A stretch of DNA of 64,000 nt, taken from contig LLEV01000005.1 in the NCBI GenBank assembly GCA_001567515.1, forward strand, positions 54,952 to 118,951. The letters run 5' to 3'. This DNA comes from Microgenomates bacterium OLB22. GTDB lineage: Bacteria > Patescibacteriota > Microgenomatia > UBA1406 > HO2-37-13b. Position numbers and translations under genes: made by a program. The first letter of the stretch is position 1; every line of letters begins with the position of its first letter. Under the pieces are notes generated by a model. The model was not told the origin of the DNA, searched no databases, and saw only the letters and a list, made by a program, of their open reading frames with translations. Shown one piece after another: positions 2,649 to 61,185 of this stretch.

Positions 2649-4920
2649 TCACTGAGGTGGGATGGCAGTAGGAACTGGTGTTTCCTTTACCTCTTTGAAG
2701 CGCTGTTTTATACCTTCCGTGACTATCAGTAGTGAACGAGGTTGACCATCCTGATTACAGTCCAGACATGACTTAGTCCCAAGAATATCAGTCAGTATGG
2801 TTTTTTCCTGCATCTCTACAGCAGGATTATCAGGCGTCGTCATAGCACCTGTATCTCTGTTGATAGGGACAAACTCTTTGGTCACCACCGCTTGTGTCTC
2901 TTTCCCTTCTAAAACGCCCTTTCTAAAGAACTCAAATCGCGTCTGACAAGTAGAAGGTTGATTTGGGTCAGTTTGCTGACTTGGCAGCAAACACACCTGC
3001 TTCCCAACCACTCCCTCAGGTCTACGAAGCGGCAGGTCAGGCTGATTTGCCAGAAGCGAACGCATAATGCTATTCCATATAGGGGCTGCTCCAGTAACCC
3101 CAGATACCACTCGTGACATTGAAGAGTTATCATTATTTCCCACCCACGTAGCTACTAAAAAAATTTGGGGTATAACCAATAGTCCAGTTATCTCTCAGAT
3201 CATTGGTAGTTCCTGTCTTTACCGACACTGTTTTCTTAGGGACCACCAGCGATGAAGAGCCCCCAAATGCATCTGAGCGGGCCCCATTGTCCTGTAGGAT
3301 ATGTGAGATGATGAAAGCGGTCTCCTTAGAAAGAGCTCTCTTGCCTTGGATCTTGATAGTATCAGGATACTCAAGGGGCACAGTCACATCATCCACAGTA
3401 TTTGGGTCTTTGTACTCGTACAATACTTTACCACTTTTATCCTCAATTTTTCTGATGGCTACCAGAGTCTTAGGAATGCCTTCATTAGCAAAAACCGAAA
3501 AGGCCTGCGCCATTTCTGTCATACGAACCTCACCGCCACCAAGAGTAAGTGATAGTCCGTAACGTGCTGGATCAGTAAACGTAGTAATTGTAAATGCTGA
3601 AGATGAGGCCACGAAATCTTTGACTCCATTTACCGCTAACATCTTTACTGCTGGAATGTTCAGAGAGTTCCCTAGAGAGGAACGTAGCTGTGTCGGGCCG
3701 CGATATTTCCCATCGTAGTTTACTGGACAGTAGGACTTAGGTTGTCCTGATGCTGAAAAACACGTGGGGATATCGTTGAAGATAGTAGCAGCTGTCACAA
3801 GCCCTCTTTCAATCCCCAGAGCATAGTTGAGAGGTTTGATAGAAGAACCTGGCTGACGCAGTGCAGTAGTCACGTTAAAAGTCCCTGACCCTGTCGCAAA
3901 AAAGTCAGCTGAACCCACCATGGCTAGTATCTCCCCCGTAGACGGTCGGGTTACCAAAGCTGCCCCATTGCTAACCTTAAGCCGTCTGAGTGATGTTACT
4001 TCCTTATTTACCGCTGCCTCAGCTGATGCCTGAATAGTTTCATCTAATGTAGTAAATACTTTTAGTCCACCCTTTTCTATAATATCTTTCCCAAATTGCT
4101 TTTCAAGCAGTTCTCGGACATAAAATACGAAGTGAGGCGCTTTGATAGTGTTAGCAGGAGGATGAATCTTCAGCTCTTGTTTCTCTGCAGTAATGCGTTC
4201 TTTCTCAGTAATGTAGCCCAATTCCTCCATGCGTTTTAGTACGGCCTCTTGTCCACGTTTGGCACGCTCAGGGTTGATATGAGGAGAGAAGTAGCTTGGC
4301 CGCTGTGGTAAACGGGCAAGTAAAGCTGCTTCCGCTAGGGTCAGATCTTTAGCATCTTTGTCAAAAAATGTTTTCGCGGCCTCTTGAATTCCGTATGAGA
4401 CACCACCATAGGGCACTTGATTGAGATACAACTCAAGGATCTCATCTTTGGTCATGATCTGCTCAACCCAGAGAGCCAATACGATCTCTTTTATCTTTCG
4501 CTGAATAGTCCTCTCTGGTGTCAGCAACGCTGACTTGATAAGCTGCTGGGTAATTGTCGAACCGCCCTGAGTGCCCTGATGGAGGACAAAGGTATCTTTG
4601 AGTGCTCGTAGCATGCCTCCTACTATAGATATGCCGTTGTGCTTGTAAAAGTCAGCATCTTCTATAGCTATGGTGGCATACTTAACATAGTCTGGGAGAT
4701 CTTTTATATGCACTGGGGTTCTATTTTCCTCATTGAAGATCTCGTACAATAGCTCTCCCTTGCGATCAAGTACTAGTGATGAGATAGGTATTACTTGATA
4801 ATTTTTAAGACCGCGTGGATTCGGGAGACCTCGAAATATGTATATGTATGCGATAGCAATCAACACTACAGCAGAAATACCTAGCAAGAACAATTTCTGT
4901 TGCCTGGGTGTCACAGTCAT
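2649..4920 (-). CDS. class A penicillin-binding protein (PBP1A-type transglycosylase/transpeptidase), reading frame split at an A7 run 3156-3162
   Basis: N-terminal TM anchor; GT51 motifs (EDADFYKHNGIS, GGSTITQQL); transpeptidase SSIKP, SLN, KTGTTND. ORFs 3133..4920 and 2649..3179 join as ...GYTPNFLVATWVGNNDN... if the run is 6 nt, matching the paralog at 12074..14245. Confidence 0.85.
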
Positions 4921-5000: not shown

Positions 5001-6807
5001 TTACTTGGTTGTTGCTGTGTCATCGCCGTGAGCGTATAAACGATAGGTGGTAGCTCCGATCTTTTGGATCTTATCTACGATAATAGTACCAATTTCGCCG
5101 GTATTTGTCACGTGAGGGCCACCGCAAAGCTCTAAGGAGTAAGCCTCGGAGACATCTGTGGCCGTCCCCCCTATCGCATAGACAGTAACCTCATCAGGAT
5201 ATCTTTCGCGAAAGGATGCCCGTGCCCCCTTTTGGATAGCCTCTTCCTTGGACATTGTATGGGCATATATGGGTATTGACTCGCGAATCTTTGTGTTGAC
5301 GATCTGCACTATCCGCTCAGACAAATCAGTCACAGCAGGTTGATCTACATGAAAATCAAAGCGCAGTCTTTCTTGTGTAATATTAGAGCCTTCTTGTCTT
5401 ACTGACTCCCCCATAAGGTCGTGCAGAGCTTGATGTATGAGGTGCGTAGCGGTATGGTACTTAATCACTTGATCTGACGAGTCCGCGAGACCACCCTTAA
5501 ACATACCGGCAGATGCTGACTTTGCTGATTCACTATGTATATGAACTAACCTCTCAAAATCCTGCTCTATCCCATCAGGGATAGATAAGCCATTATGTCG
5601 TGCTTGTTCTAGTGAAATCTCTAGGGGTATACCATGGCTTTGATATAAGTTAAAGAGAAGATGTGCGGTTACCTCCCTCCCATCTAGCAACGTCTTGGTA
5701 CTATCGAGCAGCTTATTAAACTTGTGCAATTCAGCTTGAATAATATCAGTAGCTAGTACTACATCAATGTCTTCGTATACCGATTTATAGAGCTTTGTAA
5801 AACTCATTATGATAGGGGATGCATCAAAAGAGTCGAGTCGGTACTTTCTCACTGAAAGGGCAGCTCTTCGCAACAATCTGCGGAGCAGATAGCCGTGCTC
5901 TTTGTTGGCAGGAGAGATACCATCCTTAATCAAAAATAGTGAGGCACGTAAATGATCAAGAATGATTCGCGTGTCTACACTGTTTATAGAAGGTAGAAGC
6001 GAAGTAATGCTGGTAGCCGCATCCACAAAAAGTTCCGTTTGAAAAATGTCAGGATTATTGAGCTGGGCTGCCATAATACGCTCAAGCCCTCCTCCAAAAT
6101 CGATACTTTTTTGAGAAAGTTCGTCAAGTCCTCCCGCCTCACTCTTTATGTACTGGATGAACACCGAGTTACCTATCTCCATAAAACGTCCACAGTCACA
6201 GTTGGGGTGGCACTTTATTCCATAAGAAGGGTCATGATCTATTGAAGTAAACTCGTAAAATAACTCAGTGTCAGGCCCTCCTATCTCGCCTACCGGCATC
6301 TGGGAAGGGACCCCTGAACGCGACCACCAATTCTTTTCTACCCCATACCAATGGATATGATCATCAGATAAACCCAAAGTCTTCCATACATCATATGATT
6401 CTTGATCCATAGGCACACTCGCATCTCCTTCAAAGACACTAACATGAAGCCTCTCAGGCGCCAATCCAAATACTTCTGTATAGAGCTCCCACATTGCAGG
6501 GATTTGTTCAGCTTTGAAATGTATCCCTAGTGACCAGTTTCCAAGCATCTCAAAAAAAAGTAGTGTGTCTGTTGTCCCCTACTTCATCGATATCACCAGA
6601 CCGAAAGCACGGTTGTATATCGTATAGATTCCTACCGGATGGATGTTGCTGACTGCTAGATAAATATGGTACTAGTTGCTGCATCCCCGACGAAGTAAAT
6701 AGTGTGGTCGCATCATCCCTCGGTATGAGTGATGCTGGGGATATCTCATTATACCCACGCGCCTCCCAAAATGAGTTGAATGCCTGGCGAATCTTGAGAT
6801 AAGTCAT
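5001..6807 (-). CDS. alaS: alanyl-tRNA synthetase (short form, catalytic+tRNA-binding+editing domains), frame split at an 8-nt homopolymer 6552-6559
   Basis: 85-aa ORF ends ...GDNRHTTFF then TGA; 515-aa ORF begins MLGNWSLG; with a 7-nt run the product reads RHTTFFEMLGNWS, the AlaRS consensus. Editing motifs HLIHQALH and CGGPHV present. Confidence 0.9.
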
Positions 6808-6828
6808 ATAGCAATTTTAGCATACTGA

Positions 6829-14476: not shown

Positions 14477-15325
14477 CTAATGCACATCAGGTAGCTTTAC
14501 CAGTTCAGTCGCTATCACTAGCCTGCGCAGATAAGTACCTGGCGGAGTGCATGTTATAAGATACAAATAAGGACGATCATACTGCTGTTCTAAGACCGAG
14601 ACCTGTGATGGCTCTACTTCAAATTTATCAACCACTTGGTACTCACAGGTGATGTCTCCAATAGTTAGGATGACACGATCGCCACTTGTAAGAGTCGCAA
14701 GATAGGTAAAGATACTGGTATATAACTTATCAGTAGTAAAACGTGCTAAAGCAGGATGAGTTGAGTGTCCGAAGATAGTTACCTTACCATACTCACACGG
14801 TAAGACTCGTGGTTGGAAATGAATAAGTCCCTTTAACAGATCTTCGCCATTTACCTGCACCTTCGCATCATAAATGTCCAACTTGGGGATAGAGATCGTA
14901 TACTCACTAACCGAGAAAGCTCTTTTCGCAGGCGTATCGTCTGCATACACAGTGGGGAACCAGGAAGCTGCCTTGGTATAGTCAGCAAGATTTGTTGTGT
15001 ATACTGTACTTTTTTTGTTAGTAAAACCTTCTACTACCGATGAAGATCCATTGTCTGTTGGGCTTATGATACGAGTATTTAGGATAAAGCGAGCAAATAG
15101 TTCATATTGGATGATAGGAAACAGTGACCAAAACAAGAATAGTGAACCACAGAGTATTGCCACATAAGAAAAATAGGCAACTGGCTTTTTATAACGATGG
15201 TCCTTTTTTTTTGTAGCAGTAAAGAGCCATACATCATTGGATATCAATACTGACAGAAATATTTTGATAAAAAAGTGGCAGAATTGAATTGAGGAAATAT
15301 AGGTTATTATCAAAACGAATGTCAA
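14477..15325 (-). CDS. sortase-family transpeptidase (start uncertain)
   Basis: Catalytic TLxTC motif LYLITCTPPGT and conserved His region IFGHSTH; N-terminal TM; the 5' end overlaps the upstream ORF and contains an in-frame A9 run. Confidence 0.7.
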   Translation of the reverse strand: MTFVLIITYISSIQFCHFFIKIFLSVLISNDVWLFTATKKKDHRYKKPVAYFSYVAILCGSLFLFWSLFPIIQYELFARFILNTRIISPTDNGSSSVVEGFTNKKSTVYTTNLADYTKAASWFPTVYADDTPAKRAFSVSEYTISIPKLDIYDAKVQVNGEDLLKGLIHFQPRVLPCEYGKVTIFGHSTHPALARFTTDKLYTSIFTYLATLTSGDRVILTIGDITCEYQVVDKFEVEPSQVSVLEQQYDRPYLYLITCTPPGTYLRRLVIATELVKLPDVH

Positions 15326-18915: not shown

Positions 18916-20332
18916 ATGAAAAGAGGACACTTTTACTTTTTTGCTAAACACACAATCCTTTCGCTATGTGTAGCTTTCTTGCTTTGTGCACTTACTGCAG
19001 GTATTGTTTTTGGGGCACTCTATTATGCTGCCAAAGTCACATACAAAGATCGCGTCCTCCCCTATACCTATGTAAATAGTTTGAATGTATCTGGGAAGAC
19101 ACCTGGTCAAGTTGAAGAGCTACTTACCAAAGCAACTTAATGAATTGCAGAAAAAAGAGTACCGCTTCGTATACAACGATGTAGAAGAAAAGATAATAGC
19201 CGGAGAAGATCTTTTCTTTTCTTATAACTTCGATGGGATACGACCTATCCTCACGAGAGAGAATAAATCCCTCCTGAGCAATCTATACGCAATTTTTTAT
19301 CCACGTAGTGCTTCATGAGCCAACAATAATTACCATTAAGCCCACGTATCAACCTTCGACCATAGCAGAGTATTTAGATGATCTAGATAAGAGGTATGGG
19401 AAAGAAGCAAAGGATGCTAAGTTTCAACTAGAAGGGAGAAAGGTTGTTGCTTTTCAGATTGAAGAGCAGGGGAATAAAGTAGATAGAGAAAAAACAATTG
19501 CTGATTTTGAGCGCAGCCTAGGGTCTGAGGCTAGCACTCCAACGATATCAGTGTCGAGCATATTTCAACTACCGCTAGTTCAAATCAAGGATATCAACAC
19601 CTATGGCATAGTCGAGAAAGTGGCAGAAGGTGTCTCAGATTACAGTGGATCTTCAAATGAAAGAGTACACAACCTGTTACTCGCAGCAAAGCAGTTACAT
19701 GGTGTACTGATTCCAAAGGGGGAGATATTTTCCTATAACAAGGCAGTAGGCGATATCTCTGTAAAAGACCGGATATAAACAAGCATATATTATTCAAGAC
19801 GGCAAAACTGTCTTGGGTGACGGAGGTGGGATCTGTCAGACATCTACTACCATGTTCAGAGCTGCATTAAATGCAGGCCTGCCGATCATAGAGCGACATG
19901 CTCATTCATATAGAGTACGATATTATGAAAATGACCAAAAACCTGGACTAGACGCTACTGTATTTGCTCCCCGTGTTGATTTTCGTTTTAAAAATGATAC
20001 GCCAGCAGCTTTACTTATACAGATGCATGTTGATAAGGAGAAAAGGAAGCTAACTTTTTTCTCTTTATGGTACCCGTGACGGACGAGTCACTACTATTAG
20101 TCCTATCAGGGTATCTGGGTATCGTCCAGCTCCTGAGCCCCAGTATATAGATGATCCAACACTTCCAAGAGGCACACAAAAACAAGTTGATTGGGCAGCC
20201 ACTGGGGCCACATCAAGGTTTGACTACCTCGTAAAGAGAGACGGAGAGATCTTGCAAGAGAAGACATTTGTATCCAACTACAGACCATGGCAAGCTAAAT
20301 TCCTCGTGGGAACAAGAGACTAGACTATTTAT
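18916..20332 (+). CDS. VanW/YoaR-family protein, fragmented into at least 5 frames
   Basis: GDGGGICQTSTTMFRAALNAGL and FKNDT are VanW hallmarks; pieces 18916-19140, 19085-19318, 19308-19778, 19813-20079, 20064-20332 rejoin by single-base changes at T6 19293-19298, A4 19763-19766, T6 20055-20060 and one site in 19085-19140. Confidence 0.7.
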
Positions 20333-21290: not shown

Positions 21291-21300
21291 GGTAATAATA

Positions 21301-21785
21301 TTAGGCAGCTAATTTCTTTGTTTTTTTAGACTTAGACTTGCTTTCAGGTTGCTTTCCTTCCTTACCTTTTGTTGGTACTGGGTCATCCCCTTTGGGAGTA
21401 ACTCTTTTCTTGGTTGGGAAAGGTGGCACTTCTTTACCCCAGGTGACAACGACCATATTGGCAGAATCACCCATACGGATAGGAAGTCTCTGAAGAGTGG
21501 TAAATCCTGAAATTTGATCAGAATATGCTTCCGAGACGACTGACGTAAGGTATTGTATCACATCATTATGAGGAATATGACGTAAAAGGACGTTGTGATC
21601 AGCTTGGGTATGTGTTTTTGCCTTACCCACAAGACGATCTATTAAGCTCCTGACATAACGGGATTTGGTCTTTGTGGTGACTAAAACGACCCCTTCGTAT
21701 GAAGTTATAAATCAACTTCTTCATCGTAGCATCTTTAGCATCCTGCCCCTTACGGATAACGACTTTTTTTTATCCCCTTTTTCAT
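21301..21785 (-). CDS. rplQ: 50S ribosomal protein L17, 5' region disrupted
   Basis: C-terminal 2/3 (…RYVRSLIDRLVGKAKT…GFTTLQRLPIRMGDSANMVVVTW) is clear L17. ATG at 21785 overlaps the rpoA stop (ATGA). Reaching the L17 frame needs one extra base in the 8-T run 21764-21771; that frame still carries two in-frame TGA within 12 nt. Confidence 0.75.
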
Positions 21786-22712
21786 GCTTCCTTAAATCCA
21801 ACACCTAACTTGTGTAATTCAGCCTCAATGAGGTCTAGTGATTTACGCCCTACACCCTTCAGATCAACAAGTGTTTCTTTGCCTTGCTCAATAAGATCTC
21901 CTACTGTTTCAATGCCTTCTCGAAGGAGGGCGTTAATTACTCTGGTAGGAAGATCTAGTTCATCAATAATGGTTTCATAGACTTTTTTCGTCTATTTTCA
22001 CACTCCCGGTGATACCACCAGCTGCATCATCCTCTGAAAGGAGAGCACCATTAAACATATGAGAATAGAACTGTGCAAGGATAGCCGCTGACTGTTCCAA
22101 GGCGTCTTTTGGAGATACCGAACCATTAGTCCAGATCTCAAGAATTAATTTATCAAAATTAGAAACACGTCCTACACGAGCTGGTTCAACTCTAAATGTC
22201 ACCTTAGTAACAGGGCTAAAGATAGAATCAACAGCAATCATGCCATGCTCTTTCTTCTCTTTATCTTCTGATGAAGAGAAACCCAACCCTTTTTCGACTA
22301 TGAAGGTCAAATCAAGACTACCCTTAGCATCTGTGATCTCAGCGATATGATGATCTAAATTTACGACCTCAAGACCTGTTGCCTTGATATCTTTACCAGT
22401 CACACTCTTTGCTCCCTTAAGCGAGACTGATACCTCAAGTGGTTCTTTTGAATTGAGGACAAATTGAAGTTCCTTTAGATTCATGATCACCTCTAGCGCA
22501 GTCTCTTTTATTCCTTTCAGAGGACTGAAGACGTGAGGTACCCCGTTCATCTTAACATAGGTCACAGCAGCACCTTCTATAGACGAAAGAAGCACGCGGC
22601 GAAGAGCATTACCGAGACTGTGAGCATATCCATAGGGAAGTGGGCTCAATTCGAAAACACCATAGGTAGATGTATCGGTAACTTGTTTTGTAGTAAAGCT
22701 TGGTTTTAGCAT
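21782..22712 (-). CDS. rpoA: DNA-directed RNA polymerase alpha subunit, frame split between NTD and CTD at a T6 run 21983-21988
   Basis: 245-aa NTD ORF ends IDEKSL*; the next frame encodes the alpha-CTD ETIIDELDLPTRVINALLREGIETVGDLIEQGKETLVDLKGVGRKSLDLIEAEL; one base fewer gives continuous ...KIDEKVYETIIDEL... Confidence 0.9.
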
Positions 22713-27349: not shown

Positions 27350-27780
27350 GACAGTATGGTTCCACCAGCTTTAGTGATCAGCTCAGCGGCACCTTTTGTC
27401 ACACGAACTTGTATCTTAACCGCATTAGGGACTTCGCCTTGAGCATACAATTTTACTGAGAGACCTTTTCGTGCTGGCAAAAAACCTTTTGCATACAATG
27501 TCCGTACTGATACCTCTTCATCTTTATCAAAAAAACGAAGTACCCGGGTTGGAAGGGCAATAATATCTTGTACAGATTTGTTTTTCGATTTACCTCGTAG
27601 ATAAGGAAATTTCTTTACCAATCTATTTTGCCCCCCCTCAAAATGCGTAGGGATTTTTTCACGAGCTCCTTGATGTCTGCTGGTGCCGTGACCAGACTTA
27701 GATCCTTTACCACTACCGTCACCACGGCCAAGCCTCTTTTTTCTTCTGTCGATGATAGCGGGTAATGTATGTATTTGCAT
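27346..27780 (-). CDS. rplO: 50S ribosomal protein L15
   Basis: Gly/Arg-rich N-terminus GRGDGSGKGSKSGHG...; follows rpsE directly with no rpmD (L30) between. Confidence 0.9.
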   Translation of the reverse strand: MQIHTLPAIIDRRKKRLGRGDGSGKGSKSGHGTSRHQGAREKIPTHFEGGQNRLVKKFPYLRGKSKNKSVQDIIALPTRVLRFFDKDEEVSVRTLYAKGFLPARKGLSVKLYAQGEVPNAVKIQVRVTKGAAELITKAGGTILS

Positions 27781-27804
27781 AGTTCTATAAATTAGACAAT
27801 TTTA

Positions 27805-28270
27805 CTAGCTTCTATTTTTTTCCTTTAACTTCTGTAGTGCCTTTACCACAGCATAGGTGTTTGTTGTCTTATTACGCGTACCTATGATCTTGCCTGAAGC
27901 GTTAGATACTCCAGCCACTGTCAGCACAGATCTCAGAACACTTCCCACTTTCAATCCCGCGCCCTCTGGAGCTGGCTTGAGGATGAGTCGTGCTGATTTG
28001 TATTTTATCTTAATTTCATGTGAAAGTGTGGTCCCGTGACGCTCTATTGTAAATAATTTTTTTACGTGCCTGAGCTATAGATTTTTGTATAGCTTTGGGG
28101 ACTTCTTTTGCTCGTCCAAGTCCAATTCCTAGCTTTCCATTATGATCACCTACAACTACTAGGGCTGTAAAACTGATGGCGCTACCACCGGTAGTCTTTT
28201 TGGAAACTCTTCGGATGAGTAATACTTTCTCATCTAAATCTTTTTTTTCTGCTTCAATAAATTCTGCCAT
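27805..28270 (-). CDS. rpsE: 30S ribosomal protein S5, frameshifted at a T7 run 28057-28063
   Basis: ORF 28016..28354 has only the N-terminal half; with a 6-nt run the frame continues ...ILKPAPEGAGLKVGSVLRSVLTVAGVSNASGKIIGTRNKTTNTYAVVKALQKLK, the canonical S5 C-terminus, ending at TAG 27805-27807. Confidence 0.9.
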
Positions 28271-29213: not shown

Positions 29214-29594
29214 CTACCATATGGCAAACAGCAACTCGCCTCCGACTTTCTCTTTTCGAGCCTGCTTATCAGTCATGATCCCTCTTGAAGTGGAGATCAA
29301 TGCAATCCCAAGTCCTCCTGTCACTGGGCGAATCTCCTTTACCCCGCGATACACTCGTCTTCCTGGCTTTGAAAATAACTTCACCTCACTAATAGCCGGT
29401 TTATGACCTTTGTAAGAAAGAGTAACGCTGATAGGCTCCATGATATTTTCAGGAACATCAAACTCTTGGATATATCCATGCTTCTTCAAGAGCTCAAGCG
29501 AACGGACAGTTCTGATAGAACGTTTCACATCTACTACCTCTTTACCTGCTAGGTAGCCATTTTTTATTCTGATGATAAAATCTATAAGTGTCAT
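29214..29594 (-). CDS. rpsH: 30S ribosomal protein S8
   Basis: 126 aa S8. Confidence 0.9.
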   Translation of the reverse strand: MTLIDFIIRIKNGYLAGKEVVDVKRSIRTVRSLELLKKHGYIQEFDVPENIMEPISVTLSYKGHKPAISEVKLFSKPGRRVYRGVKEIRPVTGGLGIALISTSRGIMTDKQARKEKVGGELLFAIW

Positions 29595-29608: not shown

Positions 29609-29893
29609 TTAGGTCTTATCCATAGTCCTCTTAGTAACCTTACCGTGTCCTCTAAATGTACGAGTCTTTGCAAACTCTCCCACCCTATGTCCGACCATAG
29701 CCTCGCTGATGTATACCTCGACAAATTTATTTCCGGTGTGCACACTCAGGCGCTGACCGACAAAATCTGGAGAGATCTGACTAGCACGAGCCCACGTCTT
29801 GATTGGGGTATTAGATCCGGTTTGTTTTTGTACAAGGACTTTTTTCAAAAGCTTTTCATCTATATAAGGTCCTTTTTTTAGTGAACGTGACAT
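29609..29893 (-). CDS. rpsS: 30S ribosomal protein S19, at a non-canonical position between rpsZ and rpsH
   Basis: [19 protein letters not shown]...[52 protein letters not shown] matches S19 end to end; start taken at the Met aligned with the canonical N-terminus. Confidence 0.85.
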
Positions 29894-29900
29894 ACTTTTT

Positions 29901-30086
29901 TTACCAAGAGATTTTTTTAACACCAGGGATCTCCCCCTTTAATGCTTTTTCTCGAAAACAAATGCGACACAGACCGAATCGTCGCATATATCCACGAGCT
30001 CTACCACATAACGAGCAACGATTTACATCGCGTGTTGTAAACTTTTGTTTTTTCTGGAATTTAACTACATCTGATAATTTAGGCAT
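29901..30086 (-). CDS. rpsZ: 30S ribosomal protein S14 type Z (zinc-binding)
   Basis: 61-aa core [16 protein letters not shown]...[38 protein letters not shown] with CxxC..CxxC. Confidence 0.85.
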
Positions 30087-39877: not shown

Positions 39878-40942
39878 TCATGATGATTTTTGAGCGGTCT
39901 GTGATATAGTCTGGAGTATCCATATAAATAGTCCTAGCAATATAAATACAGAGAAGAATGCAAGTAGCTTTTCTCCAGTGGTCTCTAGAAAGAGGAGACT
40001 TGAGCCAAACAAAAGAGAAACGAAGAGATAGAAAAGAGATATTCGTCTTCTTCCCCATCCCGCAGCTAGGAGGCGATGATGAAAATGCCCCGCGTCTCCT
40101 TGAAGAGGGGACTTTCCGGAGAAAACCCTTCGAGTCATAACATAACATGCATCTGTAATAGGGATAGCAAGTACTACACCAAGCGTCCCTACTTTAGTAT
40201 ATGAGAGTAAGGACAAGAACCCCAGCAGATAACCCGCCAAAGTACCCCCAGCATAACCGGGCATTATCTTCTGAGGATAAAAACTCCAAAAGAAAAAGCC
40301 TGCGAATATACCTGAACACAGATACGCAAAACGAGCAACATGCACAACTGAGACTTCATAAGCACCCACTCGATGGGCAAAGTACCCCATAAAAGAAAAA
40401 TGCAACAGCGACAAATCCTGATAACTGTCCATCCAGACCTGAACTCCAACTCACGAAGTTCATGAGTGAAAGTATCCATATAATGGCGACTATATCGGCA
40501 AGTACCAATATGTTCTTCCCCCAGATATCTAACGTAAAGAGTGGTGAATCGAGACGAATTACCCCTCCAAAGGGATTAGATATGTATGGGATACCGAGTC
40601 CCGACATCACAACCGTTGATACTATAACTGCTGTAATAATAAGTCGAAGTAGGGGTTTTAGATCATATCGGTCATCCAACAATCCCAGTCCTACTATCCC
40701 ACCCGCACCTAGGAGGATTGAAAACAATTGCTTATCAACAGGAAAACGCAACAATACATAACCCATGAGGATACCCATATAAATTGCAAGACCCCCAGCA
40801 CGAGATACTATCCCCCGATGGGTAGTTGCTGGATGAAAAACGCTTATCTGGATCGTCTACCAAACCGACTCGAGGGGAAAGAGCAATTGCTAGTGGAGTG
40901 GTGATGTTAATAAGAAAAAAATGCTGTGATGAACTCTATCAT
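39878..40942 (-). CDS. polyprenyl-phosphate HexNAc-1-phosphate transferase (WecA/TagO/MraY superfamily, WecA-like), fragmented by about 3 frameshifts
   Basis: N-terminus ...SPRVGLVDDPDKR then FHPATTHRGIVSRAGGLAI (WecA DxPxxRKxH...PxxGG); LGLLDD, NFVSWSSGLDG (NxxNxxDGxDG), WSFYPQKIMPGYAGGTLAG. Pieces rejoin at A7 40915-40921, A5 40836-40840 and a site in 40385-40400. Confidence 0.7.
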
Positions 40943-44490: not shown

Positions 44491-45499
44491 CTACGAGGTA
44501 GTTTTACTTACTAAGTCGTATTCCAGATTTTCTTTTATGATCCGTATACCATTTAGGTTCTGCATCTTATGATAGTAGGGGAGCATAAATAGACTTTTAA
44601 GAATACTATTTCTACGAAGTCTCTGGGGGAAATCGCGTGACATGGATTCTCCCGAGTATCCAGCCATTAGCCATTCAAGTGGCAGCTGTTTTCGATACAT
44701 GAAATGCCAATGAGTAAAGTCAGCAACTGGGTCCCCACCACTTGCTCCCTCGAAATCAATAAGCCCCGTTAGTTCATCTTTCTCATCCACAAAAAATGTG
44801 GTCAGGGCCGAGGTCGTTATGAAGAAGTCGAGGGGTATCTGTGTACTCATGCGTACGTTCCCTAGCAACAGTCAGGGATTCTTCAAGTAATCTCACATCA
44901 ATTTCATACTCCTTAGCTAGATCGTATAACTGCTCATTTTCTATGATAGGGTTTATAGCATCCCACTCTGTTTCATACTCTGCCCTGCCTTCGCCATCGA
45001 TTCTCCCAAAACCATGAGTCTGAATGCCATGCATAATAGCCAGGATTTCCCCCGTCTTTCTTAAGATAGATTGAAGCCTCCTGTCTGAGATTCCTTCAGA
45101 TTGCTGAATGTCTCGAATTGATCTGCCTGCTAGTTTTGTTTGAACACTAGCCCAGGATGGACTATCTGCTCCTTCGAGCGCAGCAATATAAATGACATTT
45201 GGAACAGGTATTCCAGCCTTTTCACACTGCGTCATAGCCCATTGCTCCCTTTCAAATCGCCTTCTGTCTTTGCGACTAATACGCAAGATGACTTTATGCG
45301 CACTCGTTAGTTCAACTTCATATACTTCGTTGCTTTCTCCTTTTACTATGCGCTCCTTTCTGACTAAATCAGAACCTGTTGCCAGCTTTATCAGAGGAAT
45401 CAAAATTTCATCTGGAGTATTGAAGCCCAGATGAAGACCATCTAAATAAGCCTTATGTTGTGCAGCATGATCATTGTGTGAAGAATCTGAGGAAGACAT
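44491..45499 (-). CDS. aminoglycoside/choline-kinase-type phosphotransferase (APH family), frameshifted at an A6 run 44791-44796
   Basis: 238-aa ORF ends LLHNDLGPDHIFCG*; the next frame continues FFVDEKDELTGLIDFEGASGGDP (Brenner HxDLxxxN and DFE motifs); one base fewer gives ...GPDHIFVDEKDELTGLIDFEG... Confidence 0.7.
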
Positions 45500-45501
45500 G
45501 T

Positions 45502-46964
45502 CTATTTCACTTTTGCTGTGACTTTGTATTCGATCTTCTTACCTAGAAGCAACCTGACATGTGTATCGAGTGCGGGCAGGGATGAGAAAAGGAAGGAGAT
45601 AATGGGCAAAAAATACCACTGTATAAATAGTAACGGGACCTTGGAGATATCAGTCTTGATGTTGACATAGTTGCGCAGTCGAAAATCGAAGTAGAGGATG
45701 AGGAAGAGAAGTAGGGTAGTCATCGTCAAAAGAGCTGATGAAAGTCGGGGTAATAGGTAACCGAGCACTGTCCTCTCAAATGTTGGGTGAACTAGGGTCG
45801 GGATCCAACCGCTGATAGTAAGTAGGAAAAAGGATGTCGGCCAAAGGATATGTGTCTCAGAAATATAGGACAATTTCTTTATCCGTTCGATGAGCGGAAC
45901 ATGCGTAGCGATGAGCGACTGCCGAAGAGCATAGGAGATGTCCGAGCTCCCCACGCCCACCTTTTTTCTTGCTGATAGCGAATCTGGAGGGCTTTCATGA
46001 GTTTTGGAGCATAAACACCATCACGTACAATTGGGAGATAGATAGGGATTGTCTGAACTTCTGCCCCAAGAGTATAGAATGCTTGTAGATGGATATGCCA
46101 GTCCTCTGGGATGATGTCGGTATCCCAATATCCGATCCGGTGCAACATATCAATCGAACAAGAATACGTGGAAATCTGTATGAACTTGCGCTCCTGTGGG
46201 AGAAGTGATAGTCGCAAAACAGAAGAGATGATAGTCTGTAGCCTGACGGGAAGGGCCAAAGCCCAAAAATGGTTGTACAGCAGCACAGGCGCCGCAAAAA
46301 AATGGAAATCGCGCTTAGCATCCTTGAGATATTTATAGGTGAGGCACGAGTAGTATGAGTGATGGAGCTGACTATCGGTATCCATCACAGTGACCACCAC
46401 TTTCTTAGGATCCAGGCCCTTCTTCTGTACATACTCATAGAGTTCTTTTGCTGCGAAGGCTGCGTTACTTGCCTTCCCGACTACTTCTCCAGGTAACAAG
46501 GGATGATATGTATCGATGATATCTTTAAAAACTCCTCGGTATTTTTTCTTTATAAAGTCCGCACGAGCTTTTGCTGTCTCCTCAAAACGCTTTTCTAGAG
46601 CAAGCAGAACTATAGTCTGCTTTACAGGAAATGTCTGGTTTTGAAGACACTCTACTGTGCGGTCCACTATCTCTACAGGCTCGATAGCATTTGTGATTAG
46701 TGCCACATGGATGACATCGGAGTAATCCATCTCACTCTCCTCTAGAGTACCTTGCCAATCAAGGTTGACTGAACGTTCAAATATTGCAAAAGAGATCCAG
46801 GCATAATAGATCGTCCGGATTGATTTGTACGAAAAGTAGACTATATATGCCAAGACCAAGTATGCAACTATGGCTGGATGAAAAGGGGGGAAAGCCATAT
46901 AGGTAGGGTGATTAGTGTTATGGAAGCCACTGGGACAAAGCGTTCTGAAAGCCAGATAAACCAC
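45502..46964 (-). CDS. processive family-2 glycosyltransferase (cellulose/chitin/hyaluronan-synthase-like), C-terminal TM region out of frame
   Basis: QQEKRWAWG (QxxRW) motif and DTD (VMDTDSQ); ORFs 45879..46964 and 45502..45960 overlap and must be joined by a frameshift within 45879-45960. Confidence 0.65.
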
Positions 46965-60509: not shown

Positions 60510-61185
60510 ATGATGGCAGAGACCAAACAATTGTCCAAAACTCAAAAGATGCTCAATGTTTGGGCTGTAGTACTCATTCTATGGAGTCTCTATCGCACTG
60601 CTAACATCGCCATGCCGCTCTGGTTTGATGAATTTATTGCCAAGCCAGCAGTATTCATCCTGCCAGTGTTATGGTTCATCCATAGATATGAAGGTGCCAC
60701 TATCTGGGATGGCCTATGGCTATCAAGAAAGAATATCCGATCATCTCTCTATTACGCACTCGCAATAGGTGCTTTTTTTCGCTGTCATGGCGGTCATCGG
60801 AAACATCACGAAGTATGGCCACTTCTCTACGGATGCCACGCTATTTTCACTCTCATCGTCCACCTTGGCGATGACCATTGCCATCACTGTTGCTACAGCA
60901 ATCTCCGAGGAGATTCTATCTCGCGGCTTTGTCATAAAACGCCTCTATGAAGATTCAAAGTCGGTGTATGGGAGTGCATTCCTCGGTAGCGTACTCTTTC
61001 TCATACTCCATGTCCCTATACTTTTCGGAGACTATAAGCTATCCGGGCCATCCATCATTTTACTGCTATCTACAAATTTTATACTTAGTTTCATCAACTC
61101 CATCGTGTTTATAGATAGAAAGAGCCTCATAGCCCCCATCCTCATACATGCATTCTACAACATAGCGATCCTTCTCTATACCTAA
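60510..61185 (+). CDS. CPBP-family (CAAX/Abi) intramembrane metalloprotease, frameshifted at a T7 run 60773-60779
   Basis: Second ORF carries EEILSRGF (EExxxR), FLILH and HAFYN motifs; one base fewer joins ...YYALAIGAFFAVMAVIGN... Confidence 0.7.

Follow-up and report, generated by a model that had tools for sequence, protein, structure and literature searches.

Two probable homopolymer overcalls interrupt rplQ in the draft genome of Microgenomates bacterium OLB22

Where eight or more A or T residues follow one another, RNA polymerase is able to slip, as in the poly(A) tracts of insect endosymbionts and in recoding of the IS element and dnaX type, and error-rescue expression by slippage occurs in some reduced endosymbiont genomes. 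Other described systems involve the genetic code itself, as TGA specifies glycine in some Patescibacteria/CPR lineages (Gracilibacteria and Absconditabacteria; table 25), and is read as sense in the Mollicutes under table 4. Interruptions of a technical kind are documented in a study of the Olburgen anammox reactor, which yielded two Microgenomates draft genomes from IonTorrent PGM data only, and in which persistent frameshifts, described as common in such data, had to be mended both with a script and manually (PMC4821891). The Microgenomates bins of that study drew only ~0.1-0.2% of the reads (PMC4821891). OLB22 apparently stems from the same study, judging from its name and phylum, the string 'OLB22' itself being absent from the text and supplement of the paper; given this link, the data would appear to come from a platform prone to run errors.

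The rplQ gene of OLB22, which is predicted to encode ribosomal protein bL17, cannot be read through as deposited. Comparison with relatives, and with independent same-strain sequence of rpoA and rpsE, makes it highly probable that rplQ is intact in the organism, and that the draft carries two homopolymer-length overcalls within the gene. The features concerned are the following, with coordinates given in the window, that is, the whole 64-kb stretch of OLB22 DNA that was analysed.

21301..21785, minus strand: rplQ (bL17), readable throughout only after two one-base deletions
21782..21785, minus strand: ATGA overlap of the rplQ ATG (21785-21783) with the rpoA TGA (21784-21782)
21764..21771, minus strand: first break, coding-strand A8 where A7 is expected, between MKKGIKK and VVIRKGQDAKDAT...
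21712..21723, minus strand: two TGA triplets (21723-21721 and 21714-21712), lying inside ACG-ATG-AAG-AAG-TTG-ATT (T M K K L I) in the true frame
21683..21686, minus strand: second break, coding-strand T4 (A4 on the plus strand) with one extra base, between ...NFIRRGR and (L)VTTKTKSRYVRS...

The gene begins with an ATG at 21785-21783 and ends with a TAA at 21303-21301, and its 4-nt overlap with rpoA is also present in the relatives L002, L003/L004 and L006. An earlier sequence-only reading of this locus had described an ATG coupled in this way to the rpoA stop, opening a frame that reads MKKGIKK and then terminates, and this is what is found: uncorrected, the frame gives MKKGIKKSRYP followed by TAA, and the L17-like body of rplQ sits in a different frame. 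No single ORF spans the gene, the frame being broken at 21764-21771 and again at 21683-21686. Three frames have to be distinguished, with MKKGIKK in the frame of the ATG, VVIRKGQDAKDATMKKLIYNFIRRGR in a second, stop-free frame, and LVTTKTKSRYVRS... in a third. The sequence-only reading had restored an L17-like protein by adding one base to the eight-base run (T8 on the plus strand, A8 on the coding strand), and this operation does reproduce the string MKKGIKKKSLSVRGRMLKMLR-stop-RS-stop-FITSYEG..., with both stops being TGA. The frame entered in this way differs from the second frame that holds VVIRKGQDAKDATMKKLIYNFIRRGR. A GTG or TTG start upstream of the ATG, in the frame of the sequence-only reading, would spare the first frameshift; it was rejected because the relatives start at the ATG of the ATGA overlap with MKKGIKK, and because that frame keeps the TGAs.

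Comparison with intact genes points to removal, rather than addition, of a base. A homologue search recovered two intact L17 proteins of 160 aa in relatives (P0002 and P0003), the genes of which follow a 309-aa rpoA with a 4-nt overlap, and both proteins share the N-terminus MKKGIKKIVIRKGQDAKDATVKKLLYNFIRRGRIVTSKTRSRYVRS. Some 14 kb of the window was compared with the relatives by gapped blastn. In the nucleotide alignment the window differs in frame from the two relatives by exactly two one-base insertions, each within a homopolymer run: a single-column gap is present in both relatives at the A8 run (alignment column 68), and a second single-column gap, again in both, at column 145. The 5' half of rplQ has no further frame-changing difference from either relative. 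The equivalent of the A8 run is A7 in L002, and is interrupted (ATAAAGAAAA) in L003; removing one A from the run in OLB22 joins the flanking frames. At the second site, the five bases TTTTA stand between the codons for Arg33 and Val35, where the relatives have one residue. The earlier proposal of a single frame change repaired by insertion at the eight-base run was in the wrong direction, as the alignment with relatives requires a removal, and it passed over the one-base error at 21683-21686.

Deletion of one base from each run gives an L17 of 160 aa without an internal stop, MKKGIKKVVIRKGQDAKDATMKKLIYNFIRRGRLVTTKTKSRYVRSLIDRLVGKAK...KKLAA, which is the same length as P0002 and P0003 and has 86% and 82% local identity to them. 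Residues 1-34 of the corrected protein agree almost residue for residue with both relatives; the protein of the sequence-only reading has almost nothing in common with them over residues 8-34. In L006, a more distant relative at 40% identity, the N-terminal pattern is the same, MKKGIKKIKFSKGQD...MRKLALNFIERGHVETT, and the intact L17 of all three relatives matches the stop-free frame across 21763-21687, not the frame with the two TGAs. The lineage is very thinly represented in the genome_contigs and metagenome_contigs collections, by two close relatives (one from a Logan run, the other from a JGI metagenome) and the one relative at 40% identity, and a search of the GTDB species representatives found no relative of the lineage.

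Tests against the protein family agree with this frame. The corrected L17 reaches 55.7 bits against PF01196 (cutoff 27), covering positions 2-94 of the 97 in the profile, a score close to the 55.0 and 55.2 bits of the intact relatives; the sequence-only version has 45.1 bits, over positions 15-94. The corrected protein matches 54 PDB bL17 sequences at E<=0.01, with the best chain scoring 49.2 bits and aligning from residue 21 (chain residue 21); for the version with TGAs, the best chain scores 42.4 bits and aligns from residue 29. That version had been put forward as aligning residue for residue with the L17 N-terminus, but the Pfam and PDB L17 sequences mostly match it only from about residue 29-35, so that the TGA-bearing stretch makes hardly any contribution to the match with L17. 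The gene lies directly downstream of rpoA, which is the position of bL17 in the alpha operon, and the order S13-S11-S4-rpoA-L17, followed by L13 and S9, is shared by the window (where it runs on the minus strand), L002, L004 and L006.

Elsewhere in the ribosomal protein genes of the window, the order is unusual. S19 (rpsS, 29612-29893) lies between S14 (29904-30086) and S8 (29214-29594), and L2 (33320-34084) and L22 (32839-33312) are adjacent without S19 between them. As the same arrangement is found in L004, it is a trait of the lineage and not an assembly error. No L30 gene is present between S5 and L15, which are ~25 nt apart (27780-27808), and the same holds in L004; L30 has been reported as absent in CPR bacteria, with which its absence here is consistent.

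The two TGA triplets are also readily accounted for. In the true frame the region translates as VVIRKGQDAKDATMKKLIYNFIRRG without a stop, and the TGAs are in frame solely at offset 1. Across 13 long genes of the window, the offset-one frame carries 0.055 stops per codon, a rate at which a stretch of 25 out-of-frame codons is expected to hold ~1.4 stops; two are observed, which is about chance level. The alignment of these TGAs with an N and a G of Escherichia coli L17, as formerly proposed, is a product of 25 codons read in the wrong frame. The apparent frame change and its two in-frame TGAs are thus most likely the result of two overcalls combined with a repair made in the wrong direction.

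The proposed course of events is a simple one. Two overcalls in the first 100 bases of rplQ, giving on the coding strand A8 for A7 (21764-21771) and T4 for T3 (21683-21686), would shift the frame twice, and when read correctly from the ATG at 21785 that overlaps the rpoA stop, the gene would encode a normal 160-aa bL17. Ion Torrent reads of modest coverage leave errors of this sort. The same errors would be the reason why the public annotation calls just a truncated L17, of 109 aa with a GTG start: the ORF at 21301-21630 (109 aa) matches the NCBI entry 'MAG: 50S ribosomal protein L17 [Microgenomates bacterium OLB22]' with 99% identity.

Run errors of the same type are present in other genes of the window, and at least 11 homopolymer frameshifts remain in the window as a whole. 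The sites are listed below, together with further candidates.

21782..22712, minus strand: rpoA, 309 aa in relatives, with one break in the window
21983..21988, minus strand: rpoA break, an A6 run with one A too many, separating NTD and CTD
28057..28063, minus strand: rpsE (S5) break, an A7 run with one A too many, by comparison with L004
18916..20320, plus strand: VanW-domain gene (VanW and PG_binding_4), 467 aa in relatives, in five frame segments with four one-base insertions
19129-19131, plus strand: VanW-domain gene, break 1, about A3, by comparison with L004
19293-19298, plus strand: VanW-domain gene, break 2, T6, by comparison with L004
19763-19766, plus strand: VanW-domain gene, break 3, A4, by comparison with L004
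20055-20060, plus strand: VanW-domain gene, break 4, T6, by comparison with L004
23744-23759, minus strand: rpsK (S11) start, with A7 at 23750-23744 where A8 is needed, a one-base undercall
5001-6816, minus strand: alaS, split at T8 (6552-6559)
44491-45538, minus strand: APH-family kinase gene, split at T6 (44791-44796)
40396-40400, 15269-15274, 3157-3163, 60773-60779 and 45962-45967: candidate frameshifts, at which a one-base change merges ORFs

In the case of rpoA, Pfam places the NTD and CTD in different frames, and a tblastn comparison with RpoA of L004 recovers residues 1-243 in frame -3 and residues 242-309 in frame -1. The alaS profile continues similarly across its junction, with positions 1-86 in one frame and 85-449 in another, and deletion of one base merges the ORFs, extending the reading from 525 to 604 codons. 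For the APH-family gene the profile runs from 4-181 in one frame to 181-223 in another, and deletion of one base extends the ORF from 251 to 348 codons. The rpsK gene as given has no in-frame start, and the sequence ATG GCT ATT at 23759-23751 is in frame solely if the run is A8; S11 of a relative is 126 aa. At every break listed for these genes, the change is a single-base indel in a homopolymer run, and seven of the breaks fall within ~3 kb (18.9-22.0 kb), around rpoA, rplQ and the VanW-domain gene. The five further candidates involve a GT4-family gene, a sortase-domain gene, the tail of a PBP, a CAAX protease and a GT2-family gene; as no Pfam profile runs on across those junctions, they are no more than suggestive.

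Two of these sites can be compared with sequence of the same strain, on contigs L001 and L005 from the independent public run SRR28716338. Contig L001 (1675 nt) has A5 in the rpoA run where the window has A6, is otherwise identical, and reads through rpoA. Likewise, contig L005 has A6 in the rpsE run as against A7 in the window, shows no other difference over 1280 nt, and encodes an intact S5 of 154 aa. In the search for a same-strain copy of rplQ, the neighbouring L13, S9 and S13 were looked up as exact proteins without a match on record, and homologue searches with the sequence-only version and with the corrected L17 returned solely the 109-aa NCBI fragment and the two relatives. An exact pattern of 26 nt that the window shares with both relatives had no match in metagenome_contigs or genome_contigs, and a profile-based search for the locus gave none in genome_contigs and, in metagenome_contigs, the one relative with 40% identity. 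As no same-strain sequence over 21680-21775 was found, the rplQ indels are judged by analogy and by comparison: we infer that both are errors, from the parallel with rpoA and rpsE and from the relatives at ~80-86% protein identity.

Of the alternatives, the one that fares best, although it is very improbable, is that the frameshifts are real and that rplQ, rpoA, rpsE, alaS and others are pseudogenes, or are degenerating in the sampled population. The indels are, after all, present in the deposited sequence, and several lie close together at 18.9-22.0 kb. However, the affected genes include essential single-copy ones (rpoA, rpsE, rplQ, rpsK and alaS), and they show no decay beyond the indels, with proteins 76-98% identical to those of intact relatives. 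Every break, moreover, is in or beside a run of 3-8 bases, as is characteristic of the platform reported for the source study, and the two testable sites, in rpoA and rpsE, are intact in the independent assembly of the same strain. The sequence-only reading had left a choice between locally dense errors and a degenerate region in an essential gene. The first half of this suggestion holds, as the disturbance is most likely sequence error and is especially dense at 18.9-22.0 kb; the second does not, as the errors are homopolymer-length miscalls, not substitutions, and occur across the whole window.

Less probable still is that the breaks in rplQ are real but are bypassed during expression, either because transcription slips on the A8 run or because the ribosome undergoes a programmed frameshift. 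The first break does fall in a run long enough for polymerase slippage. The second, however, is in T4, too short for efficient slippage, and expression would need two independent corrections less than 80 nt from each other. In the relatives the gene is in frame and the run is shorter or interrupted, so that a recoding site is not conserved, and the corresponding 'frameshifts' in rpoA and rpsE vanish in the independent same-strain assembly. The broader version of this explanation, in which the run breaks at 18.9-22.0 kb are all real in the OLB22 population and the essential genes are expressed through polymerase or ribosome slippage, is equally hard to credit; if it were true, expression by error rescue would be known from an ultra-small CPR bacterium as well.

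With regard to the genetic code, the five longest open frames of the window (1314, 1124, 1082, 731 and 709 codons) are unchanged when TGA is treated as sense. Of the 21 neighbouring genes, 5 (rplE, rplO, map, infA and rpoA) stop on TGA where the proteins of relatives end, and TGA terminates rpoA in four lineages. A check of conserved genes for in-frame TGA, which the sequence-only reading had recommended for the rest of the genome and which was run within the window, found that rpoB, rpoC, secY, map and the other long genes can all be read without one. No tRNA or tmRNA genes were found in the 64-kb window. In this DNA, TGA acts as a normal stop codon, and a change of code is excluded for practical purposes, in keeping with the earlier opinion that a global shift to code 4 or 25 was unlikely. 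The notion that the frame with one base added is translated, TGA being sense through a code of the table 4 or 25 type, through readthrough at this site or through selenocysteine, is the least credible of those considered, since the longest frames gain nothing from it, TGA terminates neighbouring genes, the relatives' L17 matches another, TGA-free frame, and the weak likeness of 'RMLKMLRxRSxFITSYE' to 'HRMSMLRTMVSQLVKHE' of a plant mitochondrial L17, one of a few chains to show such a likeness, which speaks in its favour, needs a 2-residue gap and is outweighed by the close relatives.

The underlying product of rplQ is most likely an ordinary bL17, and its interruption an ordinary artefact of sequencing or assembly. 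The interruption has no biological significance but some practical value. The public record holds a truncated L17 of 109 aa, and the sequence beneath it splits rpoA and rpsE too; the run sites should be corrected before the OLB22 genome is used for ribosomal protein phylogeny, completeness estimates, claims of gene loss in the CPR, or inference of the genetic code. For scans of other genomes, the case suggests that where apparent in-frame stops lie beside a homopolymer run, the opposite direction of frame repair should be tried before recoding is invoked.

Compared with known systems, rplQ of OLB22 resembles other members of the bL17 family (PF01196) in its profile match above threshold, its match to PDB bL17 chains, and its position after rpoA with an ATGA overlap. 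It differs in a lineage-specific N-terminus, MKKGIKK..KGQD, and in a lysine-rich C-terminal tail of ~45 residues, both of which are common to P0002 and P0003. The likeness to the slippage rescue of endosymbiont poly(A) tracts is limited to a break at A8 in an essential gene; here there is a second break at T4, the run is unconserved in relatives, and equivalent breaks in the window have been shown to be errors. With the codes in which TGA is sense, the locus shares its Patescibacteria/CPR lineage and TGA triplets seemingly inside a conserved gene, but in the window TGA is a genuine terminator and the rplQ TGAs are out of frame. The closest correspondence is with run errors of the Ion Torrent/454 type, with which the window shares one-base insertions (and one deletion, at the rpsK start) in runs of 3 to 8, breaks scattered over many genes including essential ones, and indels that are absent from a same-strain assembly at the two testable sites, its sole peculiarity being their local density, with seven breaks in ~3 kb.
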